Program-made: the position numbers and the translations under genes | Source: Actinomycetota bacterium | GTDB lineage: Bacteria; Actinomycetota; CADDZG01; WHSQ01 | Length of the DNA stretch: 64,000 nt | NCBI GenBank assembly: GCA_036258555.1 | Contig: DATADL010000250.1 | Location: forward strand, 1,226-65,225 | Direction of reading: 5' to 3' | Notes under the pieces: generated by a model | Databases searched by the model: none | Told to the model about the DNA's origin: nothing | Seen by the model: only the letters and a program-made list of their open reading frames with translations | Part shown: piece by piece, positions 10,554 to 39,227 of the stretch | How the letters are laid out: every line of letters starts with the position of its first letter | How positions within the stretch are numbered: position 1 is the first letter of the stretch

Positions 10554-11561
10554 TCAGCTCTTCTTCGCCCGGCTCCTGGAGACGCGCGGCGGCTCGTCCG
10601 GCTGCTTCGGGTAGACGGGCGGCCACGGCGCGTCCATGAGGCCGTTCGCCCGGTCACGCTCGTGCATCTCGAGGAACGGCTCCAGCGATTGCGGGCGCTC
10701 GTTCATGTCCAGCCACGGGTCCTCGCCGTCCGGCAGCCGCTCGGGCAGCGACGCGATCGTCAGCTCGTCGGGATGGACCTCGTCTACGTCCTCCCACCGG
10801 AGCGGCGTCGACACCTGGGCTCCCGGGCGCGCCCTCACGCACCAGGCCCCGAACACGGTCTTGTGAGGCGCGTTCTGGTTGAAGTCGACGAACACCCGCT
10901 CGCCGCGGTCCTCCTTCCACCACTGCGCCGTGACGACGTCGGGACGCCGCCGCTCGAGCTCGCGGGCGACGGCGACCGCCGCGGCACGGACCTGGTACGA
11001 GTCCCAGCGCGGCTCCAGCCGGACGTACACGTGCATCCCCTTGTTCCCCGTCGTCTTCGGGTAGCCGACGACGCCGAGCTCGTCGAGGAGACCCCGCAGC
11101 TCGTGTGCCGCCGCGCGTACGTGCGTGAAGTCCGTGCCGGGCTGTGGATCGAGGTCCAGCCGGAGCTCGTCCGCGACCTCCGGCTCGGCCGCGAGGTACG
11201 GCCACACGTGGAACCCGAGGCAGCCGAGGTTGACCGCCCACGCGACGTGCGCGAGATCGGCGGCGACGAGGGCACGCGACTGCGTCCCGTTCGGGGTGCT
11301 GACGATCGTCGTCTGCAACCATTCCGGTGCGGACTCGGGGATGCGCTTCTGGAAGAACGACGACCCGGTCGCGCCGTTCGGGAAGCGCTGCAGCAACAGG
11401 GGACGGCCCCCCATCGTGCGCATCAGCGGATCGGCGAAACGCAGGTAGTGCCGGACGAGGTCGAGCTTCGTGTCCCCGCGCTCCGGAAAGAACACCTTGT
11501 CGGGGCTGGTGATCCTTACCTCGCGGCCCCCGATGACCACTACCTCGCTCTCGCGCGCCAC
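10554..11561 (-). CDS. LigD-type polymerase/primase (PolDom, AEP superfamily) stand-alone protein for NHEJ
   Basis: Only the last 335 codons of track ORF 10554..13367 look coding. GTG start at 11561, 9 nt after the ligase stop. Contains VRITSPDKVFFP, FFQKR, PNG..S, GNKGMHVYV and VFVDFNQN, which are typical of LigD Pol domains. Confidence 0.85.
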   Translation of the reverse strand: MARESEVVVIGGREVRITSPDKVFFPERGDTKLDLVRHYLRFADPLMRTMGGRPLLLQRFPNGATGSSFFQKRIPESAPEWLQTTIVSTPNGTQSRALVAADLAHVAWAVNLGCLGFHVWPYLAAEPEVADELRLDLDPQPGTDFTHVRAAAHELRGLLDELGVVGYPKTTGNKGMHVYVRLEPRWDSYQVRAAAVAVARELERRRPDVVTAQWWKEDRGERVFVDFNQNAPHKTVFGAWCVRARPGAQVSTPLRWEDVDEVHPDELTIASLPERLPDGEDPWLDMNERPQSLEPFLEMHERDRANGLMDAPWPPVYPKQPDEPPRVSRSRAKKS

Positions 11562-11569
11562 GGCCCTCG

Positions 11570-13105
11570 TCAGCCCCTCGCGCTCGCCGGCAGGAGACGG
11601 CGGAGATCGTCGAGCGTGTCCGCTTCGTCGGCCCGCTTGTCCGGCCGGTACCGCTTCACCCGCGCGAAGCGGAGCGCGATCCCGCCGGGGTACCGCGTCG
11701 AGGTGTGGACGCCGTCCAGCGCGATCTCGACGACCAGCTCGGGCCGAACCAGGACCGCGATCCCCTCGCGCCCCACCTCGCGCTCGAGCAATGCGTTCGT
11801 CTGCCACCTGAGGAGGTCGTCGGTGAGGCCCTTGAAGCACTTCCCCACCATCGCGAACTCGTCCGTGCCGGGCACCCGTGCACCGAGGTGAAGGTTGGAG
11901 AGCCATCCCTGCCGGCGGCCGTGCCCCCACTCCGCACCGAGCACGACGAGGTCGTAAGTCTGCACGGGCTTCACCTTCCGCCACGCCTTGCCGCGACGAC
12001 CTGCGGCGTACGGCGAGGCGGCGTCCTTCACCACGACGCCCTCGTGCCCCGCCTGCAGCGCGTCGTCGAGCACGCGCTGGGCCTCGCCCGGATCGGACGT
12101 GAGCACCGACGGGATCCTGAGCTCCGGTGCGAGCGCGTCGAGCCTCGCCGCGCGGTCCGCGAGCGGCGTGTCGAGCAGGTCCTCGCCGTCGACGTGGAGG
12201 AGGTCGAAGACGAACGTCACGACCCCCTCCGGGGGCGCGTCGGCGTCGATGCGGGACATCGTCTCCTGGAACGGCGCGGGTCCCCCCACGTCCATCCACA
12301 GCGCCTCTCCGTCCAGGACGACCTGGCTGACGGGAAGCCGCCTCACGGCGTCGGCTATGCCCCCCAGCGCGTGAGTGATGTCGTTCAGGTTGCGCGTGTA
12401 GATGCGGACGTCTTCGTCGCGACGATGGATCTGGATGCGGATGCCGTCGAGCTTCCACTCGACCGACGCGCGTTCGAAGCCGGCAACGGCCTCGCCCACG
12501 CCGGCGGCGGACGAGGCGAGCATGGGCAGGATCGGACGGAAGATCTCGAACCCGACGGCGCGGAGCCCCGCCTCGCCCTCCGTGAGCGCGACCGCGGCCG
12601 TGCGCGGGACGTCGCCCGAGAGCATCGACGCCCGCCGGACGACGTCGGCCGCCACCCCCGCCGCCGACGCGATCCCCTCGAGCATCAATCCGGTGAGGGC
12701 CCCCTGTCGGAGCTCGCCGGTGAACAGCCGCCTCAGGAAGCCGGACTCCGCCTCGGTCGCGCGACCGAACAGGTCCTCGACGATCTGCCGGCGAAGCCCT
12801 GCGGAGCCTGCGCCGGTCGCTTCCTGCACCGCCGTGATCGCGCGGTCGACGTCGTGGACCGCGAGCGACGCCGCGGAGGCGGGCGGTGCGTCGATCCCGT
12901 AGGCGAGCGCGTAGCCCACGCCGACGCGTCCCTGTCGCGGCACGCCGGACAGGAAGCCGACCGCGATCGGGACCTCGTCCGCGTCGAGCCTCCGCAGGAG
13001 ATCCGCGAGGGTCGCGACCTTCCGGGAACGCGACGCAGTCCGCGCGAGCTCGTCGGACGCGGCGACGACCTCGGCGAACAACGTCATCGCCGGAAAATAC
13101 GGCAT
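11570..13105 (-). CDS. ATP-dependent DNA ligase (three-domain Lig1/LigB-like: DNA-binding, adenylation and OB domains)
   Basis: Adenylation motif I EWKLDGIR, plus VLDGEAL, EGVVVK and WRKVKP motifs. An alternative ATG lies at 13087. Confidence 0.85.
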   Translation of the reverse strand: MPYFPAMTLFAEVVAASDELARTASRSRKVATLADLLRRLDADEVPIAVGFLSGVPRQGRVGVGYALAYGIDAPPASAASLAVHDVDRAITAVQEATGAGSAGLRRQIVEDLFGRATEAESGFLRRLFTGELRQGALTGLMLEGIASAAGVAADVVRRASMLSGDVPRTAAVALTEGEAGLRAVGFEIFRPILPMLASSAAGVGEAVAGFERASVEWKLDGIRIQIHRRDEDVRIYTRNLNDITHALGGIADAVRRLPVSQVVLDGEALWMDVGGPAPFQETMSRIDADAPPEGVVTFVFDLLHVDGEDLLDTPLADRAARLDALAPELRIPSVLTSDPGEAQRVLDDALQAGHEGVVVKDAASPYAAGRRGKAWRKVKPVQTYDLVVLGAEWGHGRRQGWLSNLHLGARVPGTDEFAMVGKCFKGLTDDLLRWQTNALLEREVGREGIAVLVRPELVVEIALDGVHTSTRYPGGIALRFARVKRYRPDKRADEADTLDDLRRLLPASARG

Positions 13106-13170: not shown

Positions 13171-13800
13171 ATGAGGCGGTACTGGGCGGTAGCAGGCGTC
13201 ACGTTCGCGGCGTTCACGGTCGTCTTCGTCGCCGTCGAGGCGGCCGGGGTCTCGCTCCTGACCGACCCGCGGTCGGCGATGGACGGCGGCGGGTGGGCCG
13301 CCGGAGCGATCGGCGTCTCGCTCCTCGCGGTCGACGCCTTGCTGCCCGTCCCGTCGAGCGTGGTCATGGTCCTGCACGGAGCGCTCTACGGAGCCGTCGC
13401 GGGCGCGGCCCTCAGCCTCGCCGGCAGGATCGCGGCCGCCGCCGTCGGGTTCGCCCTCGGACGGCGCGGGGGCCCGGCCGTCGACCGGTACGTGGGCGCC
13501 GGCGAGCGTCTGCGTTCGCAAGAGCTCCTGGACCGCTGGGGCGTCCTCGGGATCGTCGCGTCTCGCCCGGTGCCCCTGGTCGCGGAGACGGTGATGGTCC
13601 TCGCGGGCGCGGCGCGCATGCCCTGGGGCGCGGCGCTCGCGGCCGCCGTCGCGGGCTCGCTCCCCGAGGTCGTCGTCTATGCGCTTGCAGGGTCCGTCGC
13701 GGCGAGCTTCGGCAACACGGCCGCAATCTTCCTCTCGCTGCTGGCGGTCGTCGCCGTCGCGTGGGTCGTCGTCGAGAGAAGAGCCCGCGTCCGGGCCTAG
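13171..13800 (+). CDS. DedA/VTT (SNARE-associated) family membrane protein
   Basis: Only the distal 209 codons of ORF 12886..13800 look coding (ATG at 13171). Hydrophobic, with the LLPVPSS..V motif typical of DedA. Confidence 0.65.
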   Translation: MRRYWAVAGVTFAAFTVVFVAVEAAGVSLLTDPRSAMDGGGWAAGAIGVSLLAVDALLPVPSSVVMVLHGALYGAVAGAALSLAGRIAAAAVGFALGRRGGPAVDRYVGAGERLRSQELLDRWGVLGIVASRPVPLVAETVMVLAGAARMPWGAALAAAVAGSLPEVVVYALAGSVAASFGNTAAIFLSLLAVVAVAWVVVERRARVRA

Positions 13801-14726
13801 CCCGGCTCGAACGGGATCGACAGGTCCCCGCGCATGTAGCCGACCATGAGGTCCCCGTCCCAGCCTCCGAACCAGAACCGCACGTGCCAGGGCTGGTCGA
13901 CCGCAGCCTCGCCCCCGAGGTCACCCTCGACGCTCTGAGGCCCGTTGACGTCGAACTCCCACGCGAGGCGGAAGCCGAGCTTGTTGATCACCCGGTCGCC
14001 CCAGAACTCGAGCTGGTAGAGGCGCGACGTCGCCTCCTGGATCGCCTGCTCGACGTCACGGCCTTTGGCCCTCTCGGCCTGCAGCCGCGCGATCTCGTCC
14101 TGGAGGAACGCGCGCCGGCCGCGGAAGTACGCGTAGCCGTCGAAGACCGATATCGCCTGCATCGCCTCGAGCGAGCTCCCGTCGAACGACACCGGAAGAC
14201 GCCGCGCGTAGGTCGCCGGGTCCGCGATCTCCCACAGCTGCTGGTCCGGCTTCGCGGGGTTCACGTAGTCCACGGCCCGCAGCGACAGCAGCGACCCCCC
14301 GTCCGCGGTCTGCTTGTCGAGCGCGAGCTCGAACGGCGCGATCACGAACGCCATGGTGTCGTCCGAGCCGATGACGTTGTTGCGGCTGACGAACACGGGC
14401 CCCGAGAAGACGTCGCCGCGCCCGAGGAGCCGGACGTGCGCGCCGAGCAGGTTCGGCGACCCCGTCCACGGCTTCCCGTCGAACGTGACGGACGTGACGT
14501 CCACGCCGACGGATATCCCGATCTTGTCTGCGGGCGCGCGCAGGTTCTTCCGCACGTAGTCGTCGGGCTGCAGACGGATCACCTGGTCGAGTGGGTCCTC
14601 GCTCGGCAGCGCCATCGTGTACCCGCTGCGGCCGCGGGGCTCGTTCGTCGGATCCGGGTCGACCGCGATGCGGCACATGAAGTAGCCCTGGAAGCGTGCG
14701 GTCAGCAACTTGGCAGGTGCGGTCAT
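13797..14726 (-). CDS. Hypothetical protein (309 aa), last gene of the VioB-like/ferritin-like operon
   Basis: GAGGGGG RBS. Starts 10 nt after the upstream stop. No motif recognised. The N-terminal ARFQGYF...DPDP weakly echoes the N-terminus of the 902-aa protein. Confidence 0.7.
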   Translation of the reverse strand: MTAPAKLLTARFQGYFMCRIAVDPDPTNEPRGRSGYTMALPSEDPLDQVIRLQPDDYVRKNLRAPADKIGISVGVDVTSVTFDGKPWTGSPNLLGAHVRLLGRGDVFSGPVFVSRNNVIGSDDTMAFVIAPFELALDKQTADGGSLLSLRAVDYVNPAKPDQQLWEIADPATYARRLPVSFDGSSLEAMQAISVFDGYAYFRGRRAFLQDEIARLQAERAKGRDVEQAIQEATSRLYQLEFWGDRVINKLGFRLAWEFDVNGPQSVEGDLGGEAAVDQPWHVRFWFGGWDGDLMVGYMRGDLSIPFEPG

Positions 14727-14736
14727 CGCGGCCCCC

Positions 14737-16116
14737 TCAAGTCGACACGAACTTCGGATAGGCGCCGGCCTGGTAGATCTGGCGCAGGTTGAGCCCGATG
14801 CGATGGCTCGTCTGCCGGATGTACTCGAGCGACGAGCGCGTCTGGGGGTCCGGAGCGGCGGCGACGAGCCGCGCGATGCGCGCCGTCAGCTCCTCCCAGC
14901 GCGTGAGCATGGTCCGGATGTCGCCCAGCTTGGCGTCGAGCGGGTTCGCCAGCAGCGCCTGGTCACCTTCCGGGATGAAGTAGCTGGAGCCGACGCTGTA
15001 TTCGCTCCCCCGGTCGATCGGCAGCTCGACGAGGACCTCGTTCAGCGGCCGGATGATCATCGTCATCGCCGGGGCGAACGCCATCTGGCTGAGCGCCGTC
15101 GCGAAGTGCGGGTAACGGTCCTGGGACGCGGGGACCGCACGCGCGTACAGGCCTGCGAGCATTAGCAGCAGCACCACGTACGCGTCGTTCGCGGTGTCGA
15201 AGAGCTCGCGTACGAATCCGTCGCGGATGTCGCCGGAGAGCGGGTTCGTCATCAGCTTGTACGCAGGGTCGAATCCGCGATCGGCGGTCAGGAGCCGCTG
15301 ATACTCGTAGTAGATCTCCATGAAGCGGCGGAAGTGGCTGTCGAGGTTCCAGGGATCGCCGAGACCCTCGCCCTGCTTCAGGATCAGGTCCACCGCGGCG
15401 AGGGCCGAAGCGCGGTCCGTCACCGGGAAGACGAAGACGTTGTACTCGACCGGGATCTCGACCTCGGCCGGGTCGGTCACGAAGATGCCGTCGAGCGTGC
15501 GGAACGCGTCGGCGATCGCCTCGTAGAGCTCCTGCACGTTCCCCGCGGCGATCTCCATGTGCTCGTTCCGGTCGGCGTGCAGCCGCGCCGGCAACGTCTT
15601 CGGCTCGTCCTCTTGCTCCAGGCGGAAGCCGGCCGCATCGGGGCAGTCGAAGCACCAGAACGGATCGACGCCGTGCGGGAGGTCCGCGTACGGAGGGCTC
15701 TCGCCGCATACGAATCGTGCGACCGTTCTCACCGAGAAACGGTTGAAGGCGTACCGCAGCGAGATCGGCACGAGGTCGCCCTCGCTCGCCTCCCGAGCGA
15801 GGGTCGCCGCGCTGAAGTACGGCGACTGCAGGCCCTCCTTGCCGATGTTCTCGCGGTTGAAGTGAGGCGGGGCGCCGATCGCGGTGAGCATCTCGTTGAC
15901 GAACGAGAGGTGCTCCATCTCTTGGCGGGCGATCATGAACAGCGTCGAGGACCAGCGCCGGACGTGCTCGTACTGGGCGGGCGTGCACTTTCCGGGCATG
16001 GGATCGCGCCGCAGAGAGAACCCGGCGTACAGGTACTGGACCATCAGCTGGTGCTCGACGTCGCCTGCGTCCATGAGAGCGTCGACGAGCTGCTCCCGCG
16101 TCCGGATCGGATCCAT
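14737..16116 (-). CDS. Ferritin-like domain protein (VioB/RebD-type four-helix-bundle family), 459 aa
   Basis: The real start is the ATG at 16116 (GGGAG RBS); the rest of track ORF 14737..18348 is a shadow frame. Motifs GDVEHQLMVQYLYAGFSL and QEMEHLSFVNEMLTAIGA give a paired xEH / EMxH metal-site pattern. Confidence 0.8.
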   Translation of the reverse strand: MDPIRTREQLVDALMDAGDVEHQLMVQYLYAGFSLRRDPMPGKCTPAQYEHVRRWSSTLFMIARQEMEHLSFVNEMLTAIGAPPHFNRENIGKEGLQSPYFSAATLAREASEGDLVPISLRYAFNRFSVRTVARFVCGESPPYADLPHGVDPFWCFDCPDAAGFRLEQEDEPKTLPARLHADRNEHMEIAAGNVQELYEAIADAFRTLDGIFVTDPAEVEIPVEYNVFVFPVTDRASALAAVDLILKQGEGLGDPWNLDSHFRRFMEIYYEYQRLLTADRGFDPAYKLMTNPLSGDIRDGFVRELFDTANDAYVVLLLMLAGLYARAVPASQDRYPHFATALSQMAFAPAMTMIIRPLNEVLVELPIDRGSEYSVGSSYFIPEGDQALLANPLDAKLGDIRTMLTRWEELTARIARLVAAAPDPQTRSSLEYIRQTSHRIGLNLRQIYQAGAYPKFVST

Positions 16117-16136
16117 CGTTCTCCCTTCTTCGGGGC

Positions 16137-18845
16137 CTAGAGAGCGGGGACGGGCAGGCCCTTGTGCTCTAGCGGCTTGCGCCGCAGGGCCGGGCTCGAC
16201 GGGGGTGGCGACGGAGCGGCCAGGGCCGGCGGACGCTCGAAGGAAGGTCCGGCCGTCGCGTCCGACCCCGGCGCGAGCGGCGTCTGCATCAGCCCCTTTG
16301 CGGCTACCTCGAGAGAGAACATCAGCTCGATGGCCGCGGTCAGCTTCGTGTCCGGGTCGGTGTTGAACGCGTCGTGGAGGCTCGCCAGCAGGTCCCAGTA
16401 CATGGCGTTGAAACGCTGCGCCAGGTTGTAGACGTAGGAGCCCTCGACGAGCGCGGCCGTCGACGGGTTGTCGGCCATGGGCCACACGCCGTCGGGGTCG
16501 AAGTGGATCGGCGCCCCGCTGAAGTCGTAGCCCCCCGGCTTCACGACGAGCTCGCGTCCGCGGACGATCTCCTCGAACTTGTAGTAGTGCGCGAGCTCTC
16601 CCTCCGTGTCGTCCGGATCCGTAGCAGAGCTGCCCTCGCCCTGCTCGACGATCTCGTCGATCGCCTGGAACGCCGTCTCGAGGTCGTGGACGACGACGAT
16701 CTCGCCCGGCCCCCTCCACTTCGTCAGCTGGGGCGACTGGGCGACGAACAGGTCGCCTCGTCCCGCAAGGCGCTCGAACCCTCTGCGGATCTCGTCGTAG
16801 AACCAGCCGATCGTGAGCCGGTGGTGCTCGAGCGGGTCGATCGTCTCGTCCGGCTCCTCGATCGCCATGAAGACGTCGCGGATGTGCTCGATCGACGCCT
16901 TCTTCAGCGAGACGGTGAGGTGGGGACGGAGCCCGCCCGGCAGCCGCCCCGGGTACGAGGGGACGAAGTCGCGGTGGCCGATCGAGGGGCTCCCGCCGAT
17001 CGCGTTCAAGAGGTTGCACGCGAGGGCCATGTGGAGCATCTCCTCCACGACGACGCCCTGGATGATGCGGGCGACGCGGCGGTTGTGCCCGTCCTTGATC
17101 GAGAACAGCGACGTGAGGTACGTCGGGATCGTCGCGTGCTCGAGCTCGATCGCGTGCTGCAGCGCGCGCTTCAGGTCGTCGACCGTGTCGATCCGCATGT
17201 AGATCGGGTTGGCGAGCCACTGCTGGATCGCGGTCCGCTTCGCGGTCGAGAGGTCGCGCGTGACCGGCATGTAGTTGGGATGGGTCGCGGGAAGGCCGAA
17301 CACGACCTGCAAGGACAGCAGGTGCTCGAGGCAGCTCTCGTAGCTCGTCAGGTCGAGCACACGCGCCATCACGGGGTACAGCCGTGCGTACTGGTAGAAG
17401 ACCGGCTCGACGTGGTCGATCCACGTAGGTGCACCACCGGTGGCGAAGCCGCTCCACAACAGCACGCTGAGGACGTTCGTGGTCTCGGGCGCGAAGGCGC
17501 TCAGGTCCGCGCCCCGCCAGTCGTAACGCACGCCGTACACCTGGCCGTCGATGTACTTGCGCGGGTTCCCGGGGTCCGCCCCGACAAGCTCGACCTCCGC
17601 CGTCCCGTCCGGCCCCGTCGTCACGCTCGGGGGGAAGGCGACGGCGCCCGCGGGCTTGCCGACCTCGGGTCCCGGCACTGCCCCCTGCTGGACCTGTCCC
17701 TCCATCGCGGAGTTGTCCACGACGAGGTCGATCACCTGACCGGACGCGGGCGCGCCGAACGCGCGGGCGTACAGCGTCGTGGTCTGCGGCGCGCCCGGGT
17801 CGAGCCGGAAGACGAAGTCGTCGGCCTGCACCCAGGACCCGAGCGCGTCCTCTTCGAGGACGGGCTTCCCGCCCGACACGACCGCGAGACGCGTCGTCGT
17901 CGCGATCTGCAGCTGTTCCGCCGTCAGGCGGAACGCCTGGATGCCCGCGTCCTGATACCAGCTGCGGCGCAGGTAGTCGACGGTCCCGATCGGAACGGGG
18001 GGACCGTCCGTCGGGAGCAGCGCGACCTCGAGCAGGCCGACGTCCGCCTGGCTCCCGCCCGGTCCGGTCGTCGGGAGGCTGTTGGCGAGGTCGACGAACA
18101 GGACGCCGTCGGCGATGGTCGCAATCGCGAAGTTGAAGGGCGTCTTCGGACGGGGCCGCAGACGCCTGCCGGCGACGAAGTGGTGGGGCTCGCCGTCGAC
18201 GTACGGGCCGATCGCGCCGGAGACCCTCCCGAGCGTGAACGTGGACGAGGTCCGGTCGTCGTCGAAGCCGTCGACGGTGAACTTGATGCTCAGCGTGTCC
18301 GGCCGCCCGAGGGCGTCGAGGAAGCGCGACGAGATCGTCGCCGGCCACTGCACCGACTGCAGCACCGACTGGTACGTGGCGCTGAAGAACGAGTCGGGCT
18401 GCCCCGCGGGGAAGCGGGTCCAGATGTCACCGAAGGCCGCCGGCTCGAAGGCGCCCGAGAACCCGTTCCCGGCGGCGGCCGAGCCGACGACGACCTCGAG
18501 TCCCCAGATCTGGGAGACCATCTGCTGCTCGGGGTCGAGGTCCACGAGCTTTGCCGACACCTGGTCGTCGGCAGCCGCGAAGCCCGCTCCGACCAGGGGG
18601 TCCGATTGGGGGTCGTCGCAGTAGGACCCGTCGGCGTAGCAGACGCTGGTGACCGCGCAGTCGAAGAACCTCCACGCGCCCGTCCCCTGCGGGTTCCACC
18701 AGCCGTTCGTCGCGCCGGCGCCGGGCCGGTGCCACGACGGCACGTATCTCGCCACGTCGAAGTGGGACGGGTCGTTGTTCACGGTCGACATGTCCGCCTG
18801 GAAGCTGCCGAAGAAGTGCATGCGCGGCCAGCCGAGATACGCCAT
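16137..18845 (-). CDS. VioB/RebD/StaD-like large protein (902 aa): N-terminal ~530-aa domain plus a C-terminal ferritin-like domain
   Basis: The N-terminus GWPRMHFFGSFQADMSTVNNDP resembles my recollection of VioB (FPRIHFRG...TANRDP) and RebD (LPRLHFAG). The C-terminal half has IELEHATIPTYLTSLFSI and VEEMLHMALACNLLNAIGG. Confidence 0.8.
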   Translation of the reverse strand: MAYLGWPRMHFFGSFQADMSTVNNDPSHFDVARYVPSWHRPGAGATNGWWNPQGTGAWRFFDCAVTSVCYADGSYCDDPQSDPLVGAGFAAADDQVSAKLVDLDPEQQMVSQIWGLEVVVGSAAAGNGFSGAFEPAAFGDIWTRFPAGQPDSFFSATYQSVLQSVQWPATISSRFLDALGRPDTLSIKFTVDGFDDDRTSSTFTLGRVSGAIGPYVDGEPHHFVAGRRLRPRPKTPFNFAIATIADGVLFVDLANSLPTTGPGGSQADVGLLEVALLPTDGPPVPIGTVDYLRRSWYQDAGIQAFRLTAEQLQIATTTRLAVVSGGKPVLEEDALGSWVQADDFVFRLDPGAPQTTTLYARAFGAPASGQVIDLVVDNSAMEGQVQQGAVPGPEVGKPAGAVAFPPSVTTGPDGTAEVELVGADPGNPRKYIDGQVYGVRYDWRGADLSAFAPETTNVLSVLLWSGFATGGAPTWIDHVEPVFYQYARLYPVMARVLDLTSYESCLEHLLSLQVVFGLPATHPNYMPVTRDLSTAKRTAIQQWLANPIYMRIDTVDDLKRALQHAIELEHATIPTYLTSLFSIKDGHNRRVARIIQGVVVEEMLHMALACNLLNAIGGSPSIGHRDFVPSYPGRLPGGLRPHLTVSLKKASIEHIRDVFMAIEEPDETIDPLEHHRLTIGWFYDEIRRGFERLAGRGDLFVAQSPQLTKWRGPGEIVVVHDLETAFQAIDEIVEQGEGSSATDPDDTEGELAHYYKFEEIVRGRELVVKPGGYDFSGAPIHFDPDGVWPMADNPSTAALVEGSYVYNLAQRFNAMYWDLLASLHDAFNTDPDTKLTAAIELMFSLEVAAKGLMQTPLAPGSDATAGPSFERPPALAAPSPPPSSPALRRKPLEHKGLPVPAL

Positions 18846-18860
18846 CCCCCGTCCCCTTCC

Positions 18861-18882
18861 GTCACCCGTGTTAACGGGTGAC
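18861..18882. promoter_or_regulatory. Inverted repeat GTCACCCG-N6-CGGGTGAC, 16 nt upstream of the 902-aa gene start and downstream of glyA (operator, 5'-UTR hairpin or glyA terminator stem)
   Basis: 8-bp arms are perfectly complementary. Located in the 90-nt glyA/VioB-like intergenic region. Confidence 0.4.
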
Positions 18883-18935: not shown

Positions 18936-20204
18936 TCAGAGATGCGGGAGTGGGAAGCCGCGCGTGAGCTCGAGGACCTCGCCGCCGACGCTCGAGATCG
19001 TCTGCTCGTCGTCTCGCTCGACGGCCTGGACGACGCGGTCGATCCACGCCGCGATCGACTCCATCTCGGCCTCTTTCATCCCGCGCGTGGTCGCGGCCGC
19101 CGTTCCCAGCCGGAGACCGGACGGGTCGAACGGCTTGCGCGGGTCGAAGGGGACGGTGTTGTAGTTGGTCGTGAGGCGCGCGCGGTCGAGTGCCTGCGCG
19201 ACCGGCTTTCCGGGGACGCCCTTGTTCGTGAGGTCGACCAGGATCAGATGGTTGTCGGTGCCCCCCGACACGAGGTCGTAGCCGCGCTGGACCAGCCCCT
19301 CGGCGAGCGTTTGCGCGTTGCGCACGATCTGGTGCGCGTAGGCGCGGAAATCGGGCTGGGCCGCCTCGTGCAGCGCAACCGCGATCGCCGCGGTCGTGTG
19401 GTTGTGCGGTCCGCCCTGCAGCCCCGGGAAGACCGCACGGTCGATCGCCCGCGCGTGCTCCTCCCGGCACATCAACATCGCCCCCCGGGGGCCGCGCAGG
19501 GTCTTGTGGGTGGTAGTCGAGACGACGTCGGCGTGTCCGACCGGCGTGGGGTGGGCGCCTCCGGCGACGAGTCCGGCCACGTGCGCGATGTCGGCGACGA
19601 GGACGGCGTCGACCTCCGAGGCGACCTCGGCGAAGCCCGCGAAGTCGATCTGCCTCGGTATCGCCGTGCCCCCGCAGAAGATGACCTTCGGGCGTTCCCT
19701 CTTCGCGAGGTCGCGCACCTGGTCGAGGTCGGCGCGGCCGGTGTCCTTCCGGACGTCGTACGCGACGGAGCGGAACCACTTGCCGGTCACCGACACGTTC
19801 CAGCCGTGCGTCAGATGTCCCCCCATCGGAAGCGACATCCCCATCACGGCGTCGCCCGGCTCGAGGAACGCGAGGTAGATCGCGAGGTTCGCGGGAGACC
19901 CGGAGTACGGCTGGACGTTCGCGTGGTCGACGCCGAAGAGGCTCTTCGCGCGCTCGACCGCGAGCGTCTCGACCTCGTCCACGACCTGCTGGCCCTCGTA
20001 GTAGCGCTTGCGCGCGTATCCCTCGGAGTACTTGTTCGTTAGGACGGAGGAATACGCGTCGAGGACCGCGCGCGAGACGTGGTTCTCGGAGGCGATGAGG
20101 CAGATGGTCTCGGACTGCCGGGTGATCTCGCCGCGCAGCAGGTCGGCGACGGCGGGATCGGACTCTGCCACGACCTCGTGGGCCGTCGTCGTTTCGACGT
20201 TCAT
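18936..20204 (-). CDS. glyA: Serine hydroxymethyltransferase
   Basis: LIASENHVS, NKYSEGY, YYEG, VQPYSGSPAN, GGHLTHG and TTHKTLRGPRG are all canonical SHMT motifs. Confidence 0.95.
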   Translation of the reverse strand: MNVETTTAHEVVAESDPAVADLLRGEITRQSETICLIASENHVSRAVLDAYSSVLTNKYSEGYARKRYYEGQQVVDEVETLAVERAKSLFGVDHANVQPYSGSPANLAIYLAFLEPGDAVMGMSLPMGGHLTHGWNVSVTGKWFRSVAYDVRKDTGRADLDQVRDLAKRERPKVIFCGGTAIPRQIDFAGFAEVASEVDAVLVADIAHVAGLVAGGAHPTPVGHADVVSTTTHKTLRGPRGAMLMCREEHARAIDRAVFPGLQGGPHNHTTAAIAVALHEAAQPDFRAYAHQIVRNAQTLAEGLVQRGYDLVSGGTDNHLILVDLTNKGVPGKPVAQALDRARLTTNYNTVPFDPRKPFDPSGLRLGTAAATTRGMKEAEMESIAAWIDRVVQAVERDDEQTISSVGGEVLELTRGFPLPHL

Positions 20205-34854: not shown

Positions 34855-36153
34855 CTAGCGCGACCTGGCCGAAGCTCCTATGTCACGGTCGCGCAACCGC
34901 TCCATCTTCGCCACCAGCTTCTCCTCGAGCCGGTCCACCGCCGCGGCCACCTGGACGAGGACGTCCGGCGCCCCGGGCTCCCGGGCGGTCTTGACCAGGA
35001 ACGCCTCGAGCTCGGCCAGGCGCTCGTGCAACAGCACCCAGGCCTGCCAGGTGTGCGGCAGGAGGTAGCCGCTGGCGTGGAAGAGCTCGAACGCGGGTCC
35101 CGCGGTCTTCCCGGGAGAATCCTCGCCCACGGGTAGCTCGGTCAGAGCCATCCCCAGAGGCCGGATGACCTGGATCATCAGGCCGACCGCCACGTCCGCG
35201 AGCGTGTCCAGCTGCTCGCGCGTCTCGTGCCCGTGCGCGAAGTACCGCGCGAGCGAATAGAGGAGGACCTCGTAGGAGACGTTGAACGCGTCCATGACCC
35301 TGGCCGTCAGCGGATCCGTGATCAGCTCGAACGTGTCGGTGTCCACCGGCGGGCGGCAGTGCGCGGCTATGACCGGACGCGACGGGTCGAAGGCGGGGTC
35401 CTCCCGCTTCATCGTCAGGTACTCGCCGAGGATGACGAGGAGGCGCCCGTAGTGCGCGTCCCTCCAGTGGCCCCTCGGCCCCTCGCCCTGCTCGACGACG
35501 ACGTCGATCGCCTGCCTCGCCGTCTTCAGGTCGGTCACCGCGACGAGCTCGGGCCACTGGAAGGTCTCGGGCGTCGCCTGTGACCACTCGTCTCCGATGA
35601 AGACCCACTCCTCGCCGTACCGGTCGACGAGCCGTTCGAACCCCTCTTCGATCGAGCGATAGAGCTCGCCCACGGTGCTGAAGTCCTGCGGACGCGGGAC
35701 GATGTCCTCGGGGTCCAGGACGGGCTCGGCCTCGCGCAACGACTCGAACCCCTCCGCGTCGACGAGCGTGATGCCCTCGGGCCGCTCGAGGAACAGGAAG
35801 TGCCGCAGCGCCGGCTCGCCGAACGGCAGCAGCGCGAACTGGACCCCGGGCGGGTAGTGCCGGCCCTGGACGGGGAGGTTCGGACGCCCGACCCGGGGCG
35901 CCGCGCCGACCGCAGCCAGGAGGTTGTTGACGAGGGCGAAGTGCAGCATCTCCTGCGCCGCGATCTCGAGGATCGTGGCGCGCCATCCCTCGATCGCGCG
36001 CAGCTGGCGCTCGGTCACCCCTTCGTCGACGGACTGCTTCAGCCCGAACGCCGCGAACAGGTACTGACAGCAGATCGCGTGCTCGATCTCGGCGGCCTCG
36101 ACGAGCATGTAGACGAGCGCGTCGCGGTTCTCGATGACGATGCGCCGGTCCAT
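34855..36153 (-). CDS. Ferritin-like domain protein (third VioB/RebD-type ferritin-like paralogue), 432 aa
   Basis: EAAEIEHAICCQYLFAAFGL and AQEMLHFALVNNLLAAVGA show the same paired motifs as the two proteins at 14.7-18.8 kb. Confidence 0.8.
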   Translation of the reverse strand: MDRRIVIENRDALVYMLVEAAEIEHAICCQYLFAAFGLKQSVDEGVTERQLRAIEGWRATILEIAAQEMLHFALVNNLLAAVGAAPRVGRPNLPVQGRHYPPGVQFALLPFGEPALRHFLFLERPEGITLVDAEGFESLREAEPVLDPEDIVPRPQDFSTVGELYRSIEEGFERLVDRYGEEWVFIGDEWSQATPETFQWPELVAVTDLKTARQAIDVVVEQGEGPRGHWRDAHYGRLLVILGEYLTMKREDPAFDPSRPVIAAHCRPPVDTDTFELITDPLTARVMDAFNVSYEVLLYSLARYFAHGHETREQLDTLADVAVGLMIQVIRPLGMALTELPVGEDSPGKTAGPAFELFHASGYLLPHTWQAWVLLHERLAELEAFLVKTAREPGAPDVLVQVAAAVDRLEEKLVAKMERLRDRDIGASARSR

Positions 36154-36163
36154 GCCGGCCGTC

Positions 36164-36688
36164 CTACTGGAAGAACAGCTGGCTTAGCGGCGTGAGCATC
36201 TCGGTCACGGAGCGAGTCGCCGCAAGGCGCTCGGCGGCGCAGAACCTCGCCTCCGCGCCCCGGGTGCCGGGGAACACGGAGAGCTGCATGCCGCCGGTGT
36301 CGATCGTCATGGCGGGGGCCGCGATCGAGACGTCCGCCCCGAACGTGAGACGGAGCTCGTCGCAGGACAGCTCCTGGATCGATACCGGGACGCTCGTGCG
36401 CGTGCCCTCGGGGACGACCGTCTTCGCGCTGCCGATCGTGCAGGTCCCGGCGACCGTCGCCGTGCCCGTGAGCTGGCTGCCGTCGAGCGCGAACCCCGTG
36501 AGGGTGACGGATCCCAGGAAGTCCCCGCTGCCGGAGCCCACCTGGCAGTCGGCCTCGATCACGTGGATCGAGAGGTTCTTGGGGGCCCAGGCGACACCGG
36601 TCATAGACCCGACGAAGCCCGCTACCGCGACGGCGAACGCCGCCGCTCTCGTCGATCCTGAAAACCTCACCGCAGACACCTCGCTCAC
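36164..36688 (-). CDS. Secreted hypothetical protein (174 aa)
   Basis: Signal peptide ending AWA. Gly/Thr/Ser-rich beta-type sequence. Its stop lies 10 nt before the ferritin-like gene start. Confidence 0.6.
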   Translation of the reverse strand: MSEVSAVRFSGSTRAAAFAVAVAGFVGSMTGVAWAPKNLSIHVIEADCQVGSGSGDFLGSVTLTGFALDGSQLTGTATVAGTCTIGSAKTVVPEGTRTSVPVSIQELSCDELRLTFGADVSIAAPAMTIDTGGMQLSVFPGTRGAEARFCAAERLAATRSVTEMLTPLSQLFFQ

Positions 36689-36736
36689 GTAGTCGACCCT
36701 CTCGGGACCTTGTTACCGGCCGCGGGCCTGGAAAGA

Positions 36737-36746
36737 AATACGTATT
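36737..36746. promoter_or_regulatory. Perfect 10-bp palindrome AATACGTATT in an AT-rich patch about 50 nt upstream of the secreted-protein/ferritin-like operon
   Basis: Self-complementary. It is the only AT-rich stretch in the 74-nt gap between the ABC permease and gene 36164..36688. Confidence 0.35.
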
Positions 36747-36762
36747 CCGGGCGGCCCTCGGC

Positions 36763-37512
36763 TCAGACCATCTCGCGGCGCCGGAAGAACCACAGCGCCA
36801 GCAGGAACATCCCCGCCGCGTACGCGCCCAGCAGCACGGCCGCCTCGGTCGTCGTACGGCTCTGCAACGTCGCGTCCGCCGAGCCCTCGATCACCCGGAC
36901 CATGTTCGTGCTGAGGAGCCAGTCGGACCACGAGGGCTTGTACGCCCGCACGAGCGACTCGACGATCAGCAGGTAAGCCATCCCGCCCCCCAGCGCGGCC
37001 CCCGTGTTCTTGCCGATGGTCGCGAGGCCGAACCCCAGGAGCGAGGCCACGACGGCGACCAGGACGATCCGGCCCCCCAGCTCGGCGTACTCCCCCCACG
37101 AGAAGGCGGGGGTGGGGCCGAAAGCGCTCTCTCCCGTCGCGGTCGGAAGCAGGACGGCCGTGAACACGATCTGGAGCGCGACGACCCACAGGACCGTGCA
37201 GACGGAGGCCGCGGCGGCCTTGGCCACGAGGACCCTCGACCGGCGGGGCTCCCAGGTCAGGAGCGCCGAGACGGTCCTGTGGCCCCACTCCGCACCGATG
37301 GCGCTGGCGCCGACGAGCCAGCCGAACATGAGCAACGGGAAGGCGAGGCCCAACATGGCGTCGCTCATCTCGGCCCGCGTGAACGCGCCGTCGTCGTTGA
37401 CGTAGATCAGCACGCCGATCAGCACGAGGCCCCCGATGAACAGGATCAGGAGCCAGCGGAAGAGCCGCCGCGACGCCAGCCGCGTCATCTCCGACCCGAA
37501 CAGCCTGGTCAC
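36763..37512 (-). CDS. ABC-2-type transporter permease
   Basis: Six hydrophobic segments. 4-nt overlap with the upstream ATPase gene. Confidence 0.75.
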   Translation of the reverse strand: MTRLFGSEMTRLASRRLFRWLLILFIGGLVLIGVLIYVNDDGAFTRAEMSDAMLGLAFPLLMFGWLVGASAIGAEWGHRTVSALLTWEPRRSRVLVAKAAAASVCTVLWVVALQIVFTAVLLPTATGESAFGPTPAFSWGEYAELGGRIVLVAVVASLLGFGLATIGKNTGAALGGGMAYLLIVESLVRAYKPSWSDWLLSTNMVRVIEGSADATLQSRTTTEAAVLLGAYAAGMFLLALWFFRRREMV

Positions 37513-38426
37513 GGCGCCTGCTCCCCGGTCAGCTCGAGGAACACGGTCTCGAGGTCGACCTCGTCCGGCCGGAGCTCGTACGGGTAGAGCCCACTGCCGG
37601 CGAGCGTCCGGGCGACGCCCGCGGCCTCGCGCGGCGGGATCGCGACGCGGAGCGCGCCGTCAGACTCCGTGGTCTCCATCCCGGCCGCCCGCAGGACCTC
37701 GGCCCCCCGGGCGGGATCGTCGAGCCTCACGAGGACACCGCTCCCCTGGGCGCGCCTCAGCAGGTCGTCGACGTCTCCCTGGGCGACGAGCCTGCCGCGC
37801 GACACGATCGCGACCCGGTCGCACATGAGCTGGACCTCGCTGAGGATGTGGCTCGAGACCACGACCGTCCGGCCCTCCCGCGCGAGCGAGCGCAGCAGCT
37901 CGCGAACCTCCCTGATGCCCGCCGGGTCCAGACCGTTCGCGGGCTCGTCCAGGAGCAGCAGCTCGGGGTCCTTCAGGAGAGCGCCGGCGAGCGCCAGCCG
38001 CTGGCGCATGCCCAGCGAATACGTCTTGACCGCGTGCCGCGCGCGGTCGGCCAGTCCCACGCTCTCGAGGACCTCCTCGACCCGCGTGTCGGGGAGGTCG
38101 TGGAGCGCCGCCAGGAGCTCGAGGTTCCTCCGTCCCGAGAACGTCGGGAACAGCGCCGGGGTCTCGACGATCGACCCCACGCGGGCGACGACCCGGTGCA
38201 GGTCCCTCTGCGAGTCGGCGCCGAGGATCCGGCACGTCCCCGAGGTCGGCCGGGCGAGCCCGAGCAGGCACCGGAACGTCGTCGTCTTGCCGGAGCCGTT
38301 CGGACCGAGGAACCCGAAGACGCCACCTGCTTCGACCTCGAGGTCGAGGCCGTCGAGTGCCCGCGTCGTGCCGCCGCGCAGGCGCCGGTAGTCCTTCTTC
38401 AGCCCTCGCACCTCGATCACCGCCAC
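37509..38426 (-). CDS. ABC transporter ATP-binding protein
   Basis: Walker A GPNGSGKTT, signature YSLGMRQR and Walker B LLLLDEP. Confidence 0.9.
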   Translation of the reverse strand: MAVIEVRGLKKDYRRLRGGTTRALDGLDLEVEAGGVFGFLGPNGSGKTTTFRCLLGLARPTSGTCRILGADSQRDLHRVVARVGSIVETPALFPTFSGRRNLELLAALHDLPDTRVEEVLESVGLADRARHAVKTYSLGMRQRLALAGALLKDPELLLLDEPANGLDPAGIREVRELLRSLAREGRTVVVSSHILSEVQLMCDRVAIVSRGRLVAQGDVDDLLRRAQGSGVLVRLDDPARGAEVLRAAGMETTESDGALRVAIPPREAAGVARTLAGSGLYPYELRPDEVDLETVFLELTGEQAP

Positions 38427-38436
38427 GCCGTAACGA

Positions 38437-38466
38437 TGTCACGACTCGGGAGGCCACGGCTACAAT
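38437..38466 (+). promoter_or_regulatory. Candidate sigma-70-type promoter (TGTCAC-N18-TACAAT) for the TenA/CADD-like gene
   Basis: Hexamers identified by eye only. Confidence 0.25.
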
Positions 38467-38555
38467 CCCCGCGCAGCCCTCTTCTCCCGTCGATCCCTCC
38501 CGTTTTTCGGGACGGGACGACGTGAGAAGCATCGCGGGACGACCTGGGAGGAGCC

Positions 38556-39227
38556 ATGCACGCCACTTCGGAGATCGCAGCACGCCTCGACCGCCGCACG
38601 GCGGACGACCGGCTCCTCGACCACCCCTTCTACCGGGCCTGGGCGGACGGGACGCTGACGCTCGACGACCTCCGCTTCTACTCCGCGCAGTACTTCAACC
38701 AGGTCGAGGCGTTCCCGGGCTACCTCGAGGCGCTCGCGGGGCGTCTGCCGGAGTCGCGGGCGCGCACGAGCGTCGCCGAGAACCTCGCCGACGAGCGCGA
38801 CGGCGACCACCCCGGGCTGTGGCTGCGCTTCGCCGCGGCGGTGGGCGCGGACGAGAGAACGGTTCGCGACACGCCCGCGGAGCAGGAGACGCTCGCGTGC
38901 ATCGCGGCGTTCGAGACCGCGGCGCGCGAGCGGTCGCCGCTGTTCGCGCTCGGGATGATCTACGGGTACGAGTCGCAGACCCCCGGCGTGTCCGCCACGA
39001 AGATCGCCGGGCTGCGCGAGCGGTACGGCGTCGGCGGCGCGGGCCTCGACTACTTCGAGCTGCACGGCGAGCTCGACGTCGAGCACGCGGGCGAGCTCGC
39101 GGCCGCGATCGCGGAGCTGAGCGAGTCCGAGGACGACCTGCGCGAGGCCGAGGAGGGGGCCGCGGCCGGAGCGCGCGCCGTCAGTGGTCTCCTCGACGGA
39201 GTCGCGCGTGTGCGCGGCATCGCCTGA
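38556..39227 (+). CDS. Heme-oxygenase-like-fold protein of the TenA/PqqC/CADD family (iron-containing redox enzyme family)
   Basis: HPFY.AW..G.L....L..Y..QY...V..FP, E.L.DE and YGYESQ patterns are typical of CADD/PqqC-like proteins. Confidence 0.7.
   Translation: MHATSEIAARLDRRTADDRLLDHPFYRAWADGTLTLDDLRFYSAQYFNQVEAFPGYLEALAGRLPESRARTSVAENLADERDGDHPGLWLRFAAAVGADERTVRDTPAEQETLACIAAFETAARERSPLFALGMIYGYESQTPGVSATKIAGLRERYGVGGAGLDYFELHGELDVEHAGELAAAIAELSESEDDLREAEEGAAAGARAVSGLLDGVARVRGIA

Follow-up and report, generated by a model that had tools for sequence, protein, structure and literature searches.

A VioB/RebD/StaD-like protein and a two-gene ferritin-like unit in an Actinomycetota bacterium, with homologues in and next to ebo clusters of distant bacteria

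The VioB, RebD and StaD proteins, which are iminophenyl-pyruvate dimer or chromopyrrolic acid synthases, are built from a beta-rich N-terminal region and a helical, ferritin-like domain of the Pfam family PF12902. The reaction that characterises them is the C-beta to C-beta coupling of indole-3-pyruvate imine, with heme b as cofactor. Their genes have as neighbours a flavin tryptophan oxidase (VioA/RebO/StaO) and downstream genes, either VioE and VioC/D or RebP/StaP, a cytochrome P450, and RebC/StaC. Chromopyrrolic acid synthases are heme-dependent (PMC10851217). The locus described here carries a related gene with none of these beside it. It lies in a stretch of 64,000 nucleotides from an Actinomycetota bacterium (GenBank assembly GCA_036258555.1, contig DATADL010000250.1, positions 1,226 to 65,225 of the forward strand), which as a whole is called the window. 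The locus consists of three minus-strand genes, named A, B and C, and a gene for a DedA protein on the plus strand.

The only solved PF12902 structure found is that of CC_0557 of Caulobacter vibrioides (PDB 3HL1), a 'ferritin-like protein' from structural genomics, and a VioB-type structure is apparently absent from the PDB. A search of the literature on PF12902 function returned nothing beyond the VioB-type enzymes and a note from 2015 of PF12902 genes at fungal lodA loci (PMC4417212).

A second system that bears on this locus is the ebo cluster, a set of six core genes for drimane-quinoline meroterpenoids, which are prenylated hydroxyquinolines. The cluster has been assigned to the synthesis of thallusin and saccharoquinoline, in a pathway that starts from a cyclitol and L-aspartate and in which EboC is responsible for farnesylation; according to the same source, no enzyme is known for the conversion of saccharoquinoline to thallusin by oxidative rearrangement (10.64898/2026.05.21.724671). 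Hypothetical genes inserted in ebo clusters were explicitly left unanalysed in one study (PMC5133447). No mention of ferritin-like, VioB-like or DedA genes was found in the ebo papers examined, and no paper was found that links eboC and DedA. Genes A, B and C are outside the defined ebo core.

The genes of the locus and the two regions of protein A are listed here, with protein lengths in amino acids (aa).

16137-18845, minus strand: gene A, an open reading frame (ORF) starting with ATG, for a VioB/RebD/StaD-like protein of 902 aa with two regions
17211-18845, minus strand: N-terminal region of A (residues 1-545), beta-rich, aligned by hhalign with RebD/StaD N-termini, without a Pfam match
16221-17195, minus strand: PF12902 helical domain of A (residues 551-875), placed by the Pfam match, the match to PDB 3HL1 and the motif alignment
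14737-16116, minus strand: gene B, an ATG ORF for a stand-alone PF12902 ferritin-like protein of 459 aa
13797-14726, minus strand: gene C, an ATG ORF for a protein of 309 aa that matches no family
13171-13800, plus strand: gene for a DedA/VTT-domain membrane protein (PF09335)

Homologues of A, of the B-C pair and of the DedA protein are found inserted in, or abutting, ebo clusters of Cyanobacteria, Gammaproteobacteria, Betaproteobacteria, Bacteroidota and Streptomycetaceae. Because all four components occur in or next to ebo clusters in distant bacteria, a role in the oxidative tailoring of an ebo-type metabolite is favoured here. In this tentative reading, which falls a little short of an even chance, A, B-C and DedA would make up one metal-dependent (possibly heme-dependent) oxidative tailoring module for an ebo-type or related prenylated or anionic aromatic metabolite.

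The ebo link was first seen beside A homologues of Undibacterium and Mycetohabitans, which have ebo genes nearby, and the Ebo proteins of these two were then used as tblastn queries. Two sets of loci were compared: 65 loci from a C-seeded genome scan, and 80 A-seeded metagenome loci, many of them on short contigs. DedA and ebo neighbours were counted by tblastn within 10 kb.

In Spirulina (L065) the B-C pair is part of an ebo operon, in the order eboA-B-C-D-(B-C)-eboE. In Shewanella (L069) the order is eboD-eboC-(B-C)-eboA-B-E-F. The ebo cluster of Symploca sp. SIO1C2 (L061, 715-20972) holds four PF12902 genes, which encode a 1234-aa protein, B, A and a 326-aa ferritin-like protein; its order is eboC-D-(PF12902, 1234 aa)-(B-C)-(A)-eboE-(ferritin + N-domain)-DedA-eboF. 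The pair also adjoins an actinomycete-type ebo cluster in Streptantibioticus (L073), and eboD-like genes lie near B-C at two Planctomycetota loci. A-like genes head the eboABCDEF operon in Aureibacter and adjoin eboB/eboD in Gloeothece, and 12 of the 80 A-seeded metagenome loci have ebo genes.

The DedA protein can be connected with the same pathway through a natural fusion. An uncultured Shewanella sp. (L069, 5499-7466) encodes a 655-aa protein with a DedA/VTT domain (residues 79-196) followed by EboD (3-dehydroquinate-synthase-like, residues 350-593). Through this predicted protein, DedA proteins are tied directly to the ebo pathway. The C homologues found with ebo genes do not come from one corner of the family; they are spread over the deepest splits of a neighbour-joining tree of C. 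The phyla in which ebo genes occur (10.64898/2026.05.21.724671) overlap those in which B-C occurs.

The initial annotation had proposed that the 902-aa protein has the full VioB architecture, and profile comparison bears this out. PF12902 matches residues 562-761 of A with an E-value of 9e-60 (202.7 bits, with a gathering threshold of 22.3 for the family). Reference RebD/StaD proteins were fetched by tblastn with a VioB N-terminus that served as bait only. The bait recovered genes of plasmid-borne indolocarbazole clusters from Pseudonocardia (pBCI2-2), S. clavuligerus and Nocardiopsis. The neighbours of the Pseudonocardia gene encode a flavin adenine dinucleotide (FAD) oxidase, a monooxygenase, a P450, halogenases and a glycosyltransferase, as in a rebeccamycin-like cluster. 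In hhalign, a profile of the A family and the Pseudonocardia RebD-type protein align collinearly across 833 columns, beginning at residue 1 (Prob 99.7%, E 1e-26). The N-terminal alignment that had been suggested as a check was also made: columns 50-545 of A alone, set against three RebD/StaD-type N-termini, aligned over 492 columns (Prob 96.7%, E 3.5e-10). Pairwise BLASTP of A against the RebD/StaD-type proteins is marginal.

Like VioB, RebD and StaD, protein A begins with a PRxHFxG-type motif and carries the E, EEMxH, QGEG and H residues of the helical domain. It differs from them in sequence, with about 25% identity, and is roughly 100-300 aa shorter. On TIGR04492, the VioB equivalog model of NCBIfam, A scores 18.1 bits against a cut-off of 1250, and the match covers the ferritin-like domain in part only. 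Because this equivalog threshold is failed, A is not a VioB orthologue by the sequence models used here.

A belongs instead to a much larger, phylum-spanning family of proteins of about 900 aa. More than 1000 relatives are present in the protein database. The best 120 of these are about 880-1070 aa long and 47-100% identical to A, and cover 74-100% of it (more than 90% in all but two). Their hosts include Acidobacteriota, Chloroflexota, Myxococcota, Bacteroidota and Betaproteobacteria, among others. At best these proteins carry the name 'ferritin-like protein'.

The AlphaFold2 model of A, which has a mean predicted local distance difference test score (pLDDT) of 84, shows tandem beta-sandwiches followed by the helical domain. 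The N-terminal region matches no Pfam family, and a fold search with it gave generic immunoglobulin-like matches only. The C-terminal domain matches PDB 3HL1 both in sequence (E 8e-12) and in fold (template modelling score 0.74). The Caulobacter protein is itself a single domain of 317 aa and, unlike A and B-C, has neither an N-terminal beta region nor a C-type partner. The histidine of the ELEH motif in helix 1 of A is a tryptophan in it.

Genuine indolocarbazole clusters do contain an oxidase and downstream genes. The initial annotation had noted that the window lacks a partner amino-acid oxidase, and this holds well beyond the window. With tblastn queries that included RebO, StaO, the Nocardiopsis oxidase, RebC and RebP, no homologue of VioA/RebO/StaO, RebC, RebP or LodA/LodB was found at E <= 1e-4, either in the window or at any of 145 related loci.

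Protein B has the helical domain without the N-terminal region. PF12902 matches its residues 15-269 (E 6.5e-27, 95.3 bits), and on TIGR04492 it reaches 59.1 bits of the required 1250, the ferritin-like domain being matched in part. The B family aligns with residues 551-875 of A in hhalign (Prob 99.7%, E 5e-26). By this alignment, B is a paralogue of the C-terminal domain of A.

The peptides that had been quoted from the two proteins were all found, namely GWPRMHFFGSFQADMSTVNNDP, IELEH and EEMLHMALACNLLNAIGG in A, and GDVEH and QEMEHLSFVNEMLTAIGA in B. They had been read as paired [E/D]xEH and EMxH motifs of a dimetal site. An alignment of the ferritin-like domains was made that took in the A family, the B family, split A-type proteins, a third paralogue from the window and RebD/StaD-type proteins. 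All groups share the glutamate of helix 1 (E569 of A), an (E/Q)EMxH motif (E602 and H605), a QGEG motif (E737) and an (A/S)H(Y/F) motif (H753). The putative site of B consists of E21, E66, H69, E250 and H261. The first half of this set, E569 with E602-x-x-H605, is like one E + ExxH dimetal set and is kept across A, B and RebD/StaD. The second half, QGE737G...H753, is unlike one. Because it departs from the E...ExxH pattern, a dimetal four-helix bundle in the ferritin-like domains of A and B is plausible and is not put more strongly here. The classical ferritin family PF00210 matches below its threshold (13.5 against 24.5 bits).

B and C occur together at every C-seeded locus. The 65 C-seeded loci come from Actinomycetota, Acidobacteriota, Myxococcota, Bacteroidota, Chloroflexota and Planctomycetota, and also from Cyanobacteria, Verrucomicrobiota, Gammaproteobacteria and Streptomycetaceae; at least nine phyla are represented in all. 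At 65 of 65 loci the gene directly upstream of C, in the same orientation, belongs to the B family, and the stop codon of B and the start codon of C frequently overlap. Four independent natural fusions of the two proteins were found (clusters P0397, P0402, P0422 and P0506), and in each of them an N-terminal PF12902 domain is joined to a C-terminal C-domain. From the constant adjacency, the overlapping codons and the four fusions it follows that B-C, as far as gene arrangement can tell, is an obligate two-part unit. The two proteins very probably form a complex.

A deep-branching version of the pair, B'-C', with 28-35% identity, occurs in Streptomycetaceae (L070, L073, L075, L076, L078 and L079), always preceded by a gene for a haloacid dehalogenase (HAD) hydrolase. 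One of these sites (L075) looks like a secondary-metabolite locus, with genes for an aldo/keto reductase, an O-methyltransferase, a glycosyltransferase, an amino-acid permease and a polyketide synthase.

Protein C has no match in Pfam, NCBIfam or the PDB sequences. A profile search of 1.84 billion representative proteins returned 488 clusters only. Among 39 sequences with 53-89% identity to the window protein, 73 columns are invariant; many of these are Arg, Asp or Trp, and none is His. The AlphaFold2 model (pLDDT 87, predicted template modelling score 0.87) starts with a strand and includes a conserved loop (residues 22-35) that is modelled with low confidence, a beta-rich core and a long helical hairpin (about residues 197-251). 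Foldseek found no match for this model in the PDB (best E 0.15), and the family profile gave coiled-coil noise only against PDB sequences. One homologue (P0428, 860 aa) has a C-domain (residues 1-268) fused to a subtilase (Peptidase_S8, residues 479-733), which is at odds with a picture of C as the partner of an oxidase.

The start of C, ARFQGYF...DPDP, is as first reported. It had led to the proposal that the 459-aa and 309-aa proteins are a split, order-swapped form of the fused protein. One part of this proposal stands: B-C is one unit, and the four fusions have the ferritin-like domain first and the C-domain second. The other part would need C to be a diverged VioB N-domain, for which no reliable homology was found. 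BLASTP of C against A and against RebD/StaD N-termini found nothing, and a first hhalign run of C against the A family gave a Prob of 0.3%. Richer profiles of C, with an effective number of sequences (Neff) of 5, raised this to 2.3-4.8% (P 0.008-0.02). The resulting alignment is collinear with residues ~1-245 of A. In it the FxGxF...DPxxN motifs at the N-termini of C and of the N-region fall opposite each other, as do the last strands of the two. Adding DSSP strings to the C and A profiles left the score unchanged. The score beat one column-shuffled null (15.1 +/- 2.9) and did not beat a second (25.3 against 24.0 +/- 2.0). Because only one of the two nulls was beaten, homology of C to the VioB N-domain is not claimed and, from these profiles, is not established.

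True split forms of A do exist. An N-domain gene followed by a ferritin-like gene is found in Azospirillum, Mycetohabitans, Aureibacter and Gloeothece. In Symploca (L061, 16484-19778) the order is swapped, with the 326-aa ferritin-like gene first and a 762-aa N-domain-like gene second. As these pairs show, an A-type N-region and its ferritin-like domain can work as separate polypeptides. The partner in them is a clear homologue of the A N-region (hidden Markov model scores of 255-559 bits mostly, 42 bits in Symploca), whereas C is not detectably so.

The arrangement of all three genes is much less stable than the B-C pair. The trio does not hold up as a generally conserved unit: B-C alone is kept throughout, and A-B-C together with the convergent DedA is confined to close relatives (L004/L005, L160 and L161). 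It is missing at most other loci and is rearranged in a few distant lineages. Relatives also keep the 20-nt spacing between A and B. The convergent position of DedA is kept in L160, L161 and L015. The last of these, with a C protein 75% identical to that of the window, has B-C-DedA, and the 1.7 kb that precede B contain nothing A-like.

Besides the window's own, four distant lineages have A-like genes within 10 kb of B-C. The case from Acidimicrobiia (L006/L016) is a stand-alone N-domain of 640 aa, which starts with VSVFDFPRINFSG and ends with the motif YMPxTRDLS; DedA, B and C come after it. In Symploca the order is B-C-A, with DedA in addition. The other two cases are from Blastocatellia (L046) and Shewanella (L069). 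The chance that a single-copy gene falls within 10 kb is estimated at about 0.4% of loci. Over the same distance of 10 kb, a DedA gene is present at 7 of the 65 C-seeded and 8 of the 80 A-seeded loci.

In the favoured reading, A, B and C would be cytoplasmic metal-dependent redox enzymes, and DedA would be their membrane partner. A, a distant paralogue of the heme-containing imine-coupling enzymes, would work without a dedicated flavin amino-acid oxidase. B-C would be a two-subunit enzyme in which B supplies the ferritin-like catalytic bundle and C is a novel beta-rich subunit in the place of the N-region. C could bind an anionic (carboxylated or phosphorylated) substrate, or dock the complex. 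The tailoring itself might be a hydroxylation, a coupling or a ring-opening of an ebo-type or related membrane-associated metabolite, and DedA would take charge of a lipid-linked or prenylated intermediate, either inside the membrane or across it.

A bolder version is also conceivable. A-type proteins and B-C could be a new class of oxidases, independent of flavin oxidases, for ebo oxidative chemistry that has been assigned to no enzyme, with C as a substrate-binding subunit of novel fold and DedA handling a prenylated intermediate. Taken as a whole this is improbable. One candidate step for such a class would be the ring-opening rearrangement from saccharoquinoline-type trihydroxyquinolines to thallusin-type products. 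Another candidate would be a C-C or C-N coupling of an aspartate-derived imine to the cyclitol.

Several observations weigh against an ebo-related role. A tblastn search found no ebo core gene in the window, so that for this organism the link to ebo chemistry would be drawn from its relatives. There is also no ebo gene within 10 kb at 59 of the 65 B-C loci, nor at most A loci. Characterised producers of thallusin, such as Bacteroidota that have the plain six-gene operon, apparently do without A, B and C, and the A/B/C module therefore cannot be a core step of the pathway. Finally, DedA genes are common: from their typical copy number, chance adjacency is estimated at about 1% per locus, compared with about 10% observed.

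Three other explanations can be considered. The first is that the locus encodes a stand-alone VioB-type coupling or dimerising system that uses an imine or enol substrate from primary metabolism and is unrelated to ebo. The full VioB/RebD/StaD architecture of A and its conserved motifs would fit such a system, as would the 59 bits of B on TIGR04492 and the lack of ebo genes in the window and at most related loci. However, A reaches 18 of 1250 bits on the equivalog model, neither the window nor the 145 related loci have a partner oxidase or tailoring gene, and it would be hard to explain why A-like and B-C genes lie repeatedly within ebo operons in five phyla. This explanation is unlikely, but it deserves to be taken seriously.

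The second explanation is that PF12902 proteins serve in peroxide or iron handling. They could act as catalase- or peroxidase-like scavengers that protect against by-products, or they could handle iron chelates. PF12902 genes recur beside oxidases that produce hydrogen peroxide, namely the flavin tryptophan oxidases of indolocarbazole clusters, GMC oxidoreductases and LodA-type quinoprotein oxidases. Some sources name these proteins 'rubrerythrin', and RebD reportedly has catalase activity, as described by Howard-Jones and Walsh in 2005. The LodA-type pairing is found in Mycetohabitans as well as in fungi (PMC4417212), and thallusin is described as a metal chelator (10.64898/2026.05.21.724671). 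Yet this locus has no oxidase partner, the match to PF00210 stays below threshold, and large conserved beta-rich partners such as the N-region of A and protein C would not be expected for a simple scavenger. A scavenging or iron-handling role is quite unlikely.

The third explanation, that A and B-C are functionally unrelated neighbours brought together by an accident of history between two paralogous ferritin-like systems, would account for the lack of A beside B-C in about 60 of 65 loci, for the many genomes with A alone and for the B-C-DedA arrangement of L015, but is given a low probability in view of the five lineages, far apart from one another, in which an A-like or N-domain gene is no more than 10 kb from B-C (against the estimated 0.4%), the 20-nt spacing kept in relatives and the same secondary associations, with DedA and ebo, of A and of B-C.

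The surroundings of the locus include the following further features.

18936-20204: glyA, upstream of gene A
18861-18882, strand not applicable: perfect 9-bp inverted repeat (GTCACCCGT/ACGGGTGAC) with a 4-nt spacer
10554-13105, minus strand: ATP-dependent DNA ligase (511 aa) and an ORF like the LigD polymerase domain, downstream of DedA

The gene layout first reported was verified. The three minus-strand genes are separated by 20 nt (A/B, 16117-16136) and 10 nt (B/C, 14727-14736), and ahead of each start codon lies a Shine-Dalgarno-like sequence rich in purines, which reads GGAAGGGGA at A, AAGGGAG at B and GAGGGGG at C. The three ORFs are taken to be real coding frames because their third-position guanine-plus-cytosine content is 0.90-0.93. 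The neighbours glyA and DedA are also as first described. The DedA gene is convergent with C, the 3' ends of the two abut, and its PF09335 match has an E-value of 6e-15 (56.3 bits, cut-off 33.9).

The inverted repeat is placed between glyA and the ribosome-binding site of A, and may be a leader hairpin or an operator. A similar hairpin is present at the same place in the relative L160 (~420-446), with a compensating change from A-T to G-C. A promoter and terminator scan gave no useful result. The DNA ligase and the LigD-like ORF make up a non-homologous end-joining pair that is probably unrelated to the A-B-C-DedA module. The defence models of PADLOC gave no match for A, B, C or DedA.

PF12902 genes are also found in other settings, within the window and elsewhere. 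A third gene of the family lies at 34858-36153 on the minus strand (432 aa, E 1.5e-40, 139.9 bits) and has no C-type partner. Just upstream of it, on the same strand, are a 182-aa ORF without a Pfam match and ABC-2/ABC transporter genes (36164-38438), and a Haem_oxygenas_2 (PF14518) gene is at 38526-39227 on the plus strand. In Rhizobium (hits H11, H12 and H27) short PF12902 genes adjoin genes for GMC oxidoreductases on many plasmids. In Mycetohabitans (L010, 3498-6559) a LodA/GoxA-type quinoprotein oxidase and a LodB-like partner are encoded about 4.5 kb from a split A-like pair.

Judged by its sequence relationships, protein A represents a new subfamily within a known architecture. Neither the B-C pair nor the predicted fold of C, which has no match in the PDB, is described in the literature and libraries examined. 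The association of A, B-C and DedA with ebo clusters appears to be unreported in the literature examined. VioB, RebD and StaD are the sole characterised members of an architecture that is widespread in bacteria. For this dark family, a biochemical context that can be tested is provided by the lack of a tryptophan oxidase, by the locking of B to a novel partner and by the recurrent siting of these genes, along with one for a DedA membrane protein, in ebo clusters. The ebo pathway leads to thallusin, an algal morphogen and growth signal, and since no enzyme is known for its late oxidative step, the A, B and C genes are concrete candidates for that step. They may open the way to new metallo-enzyme chemistry, as well as to a protein without a match among solved structures.

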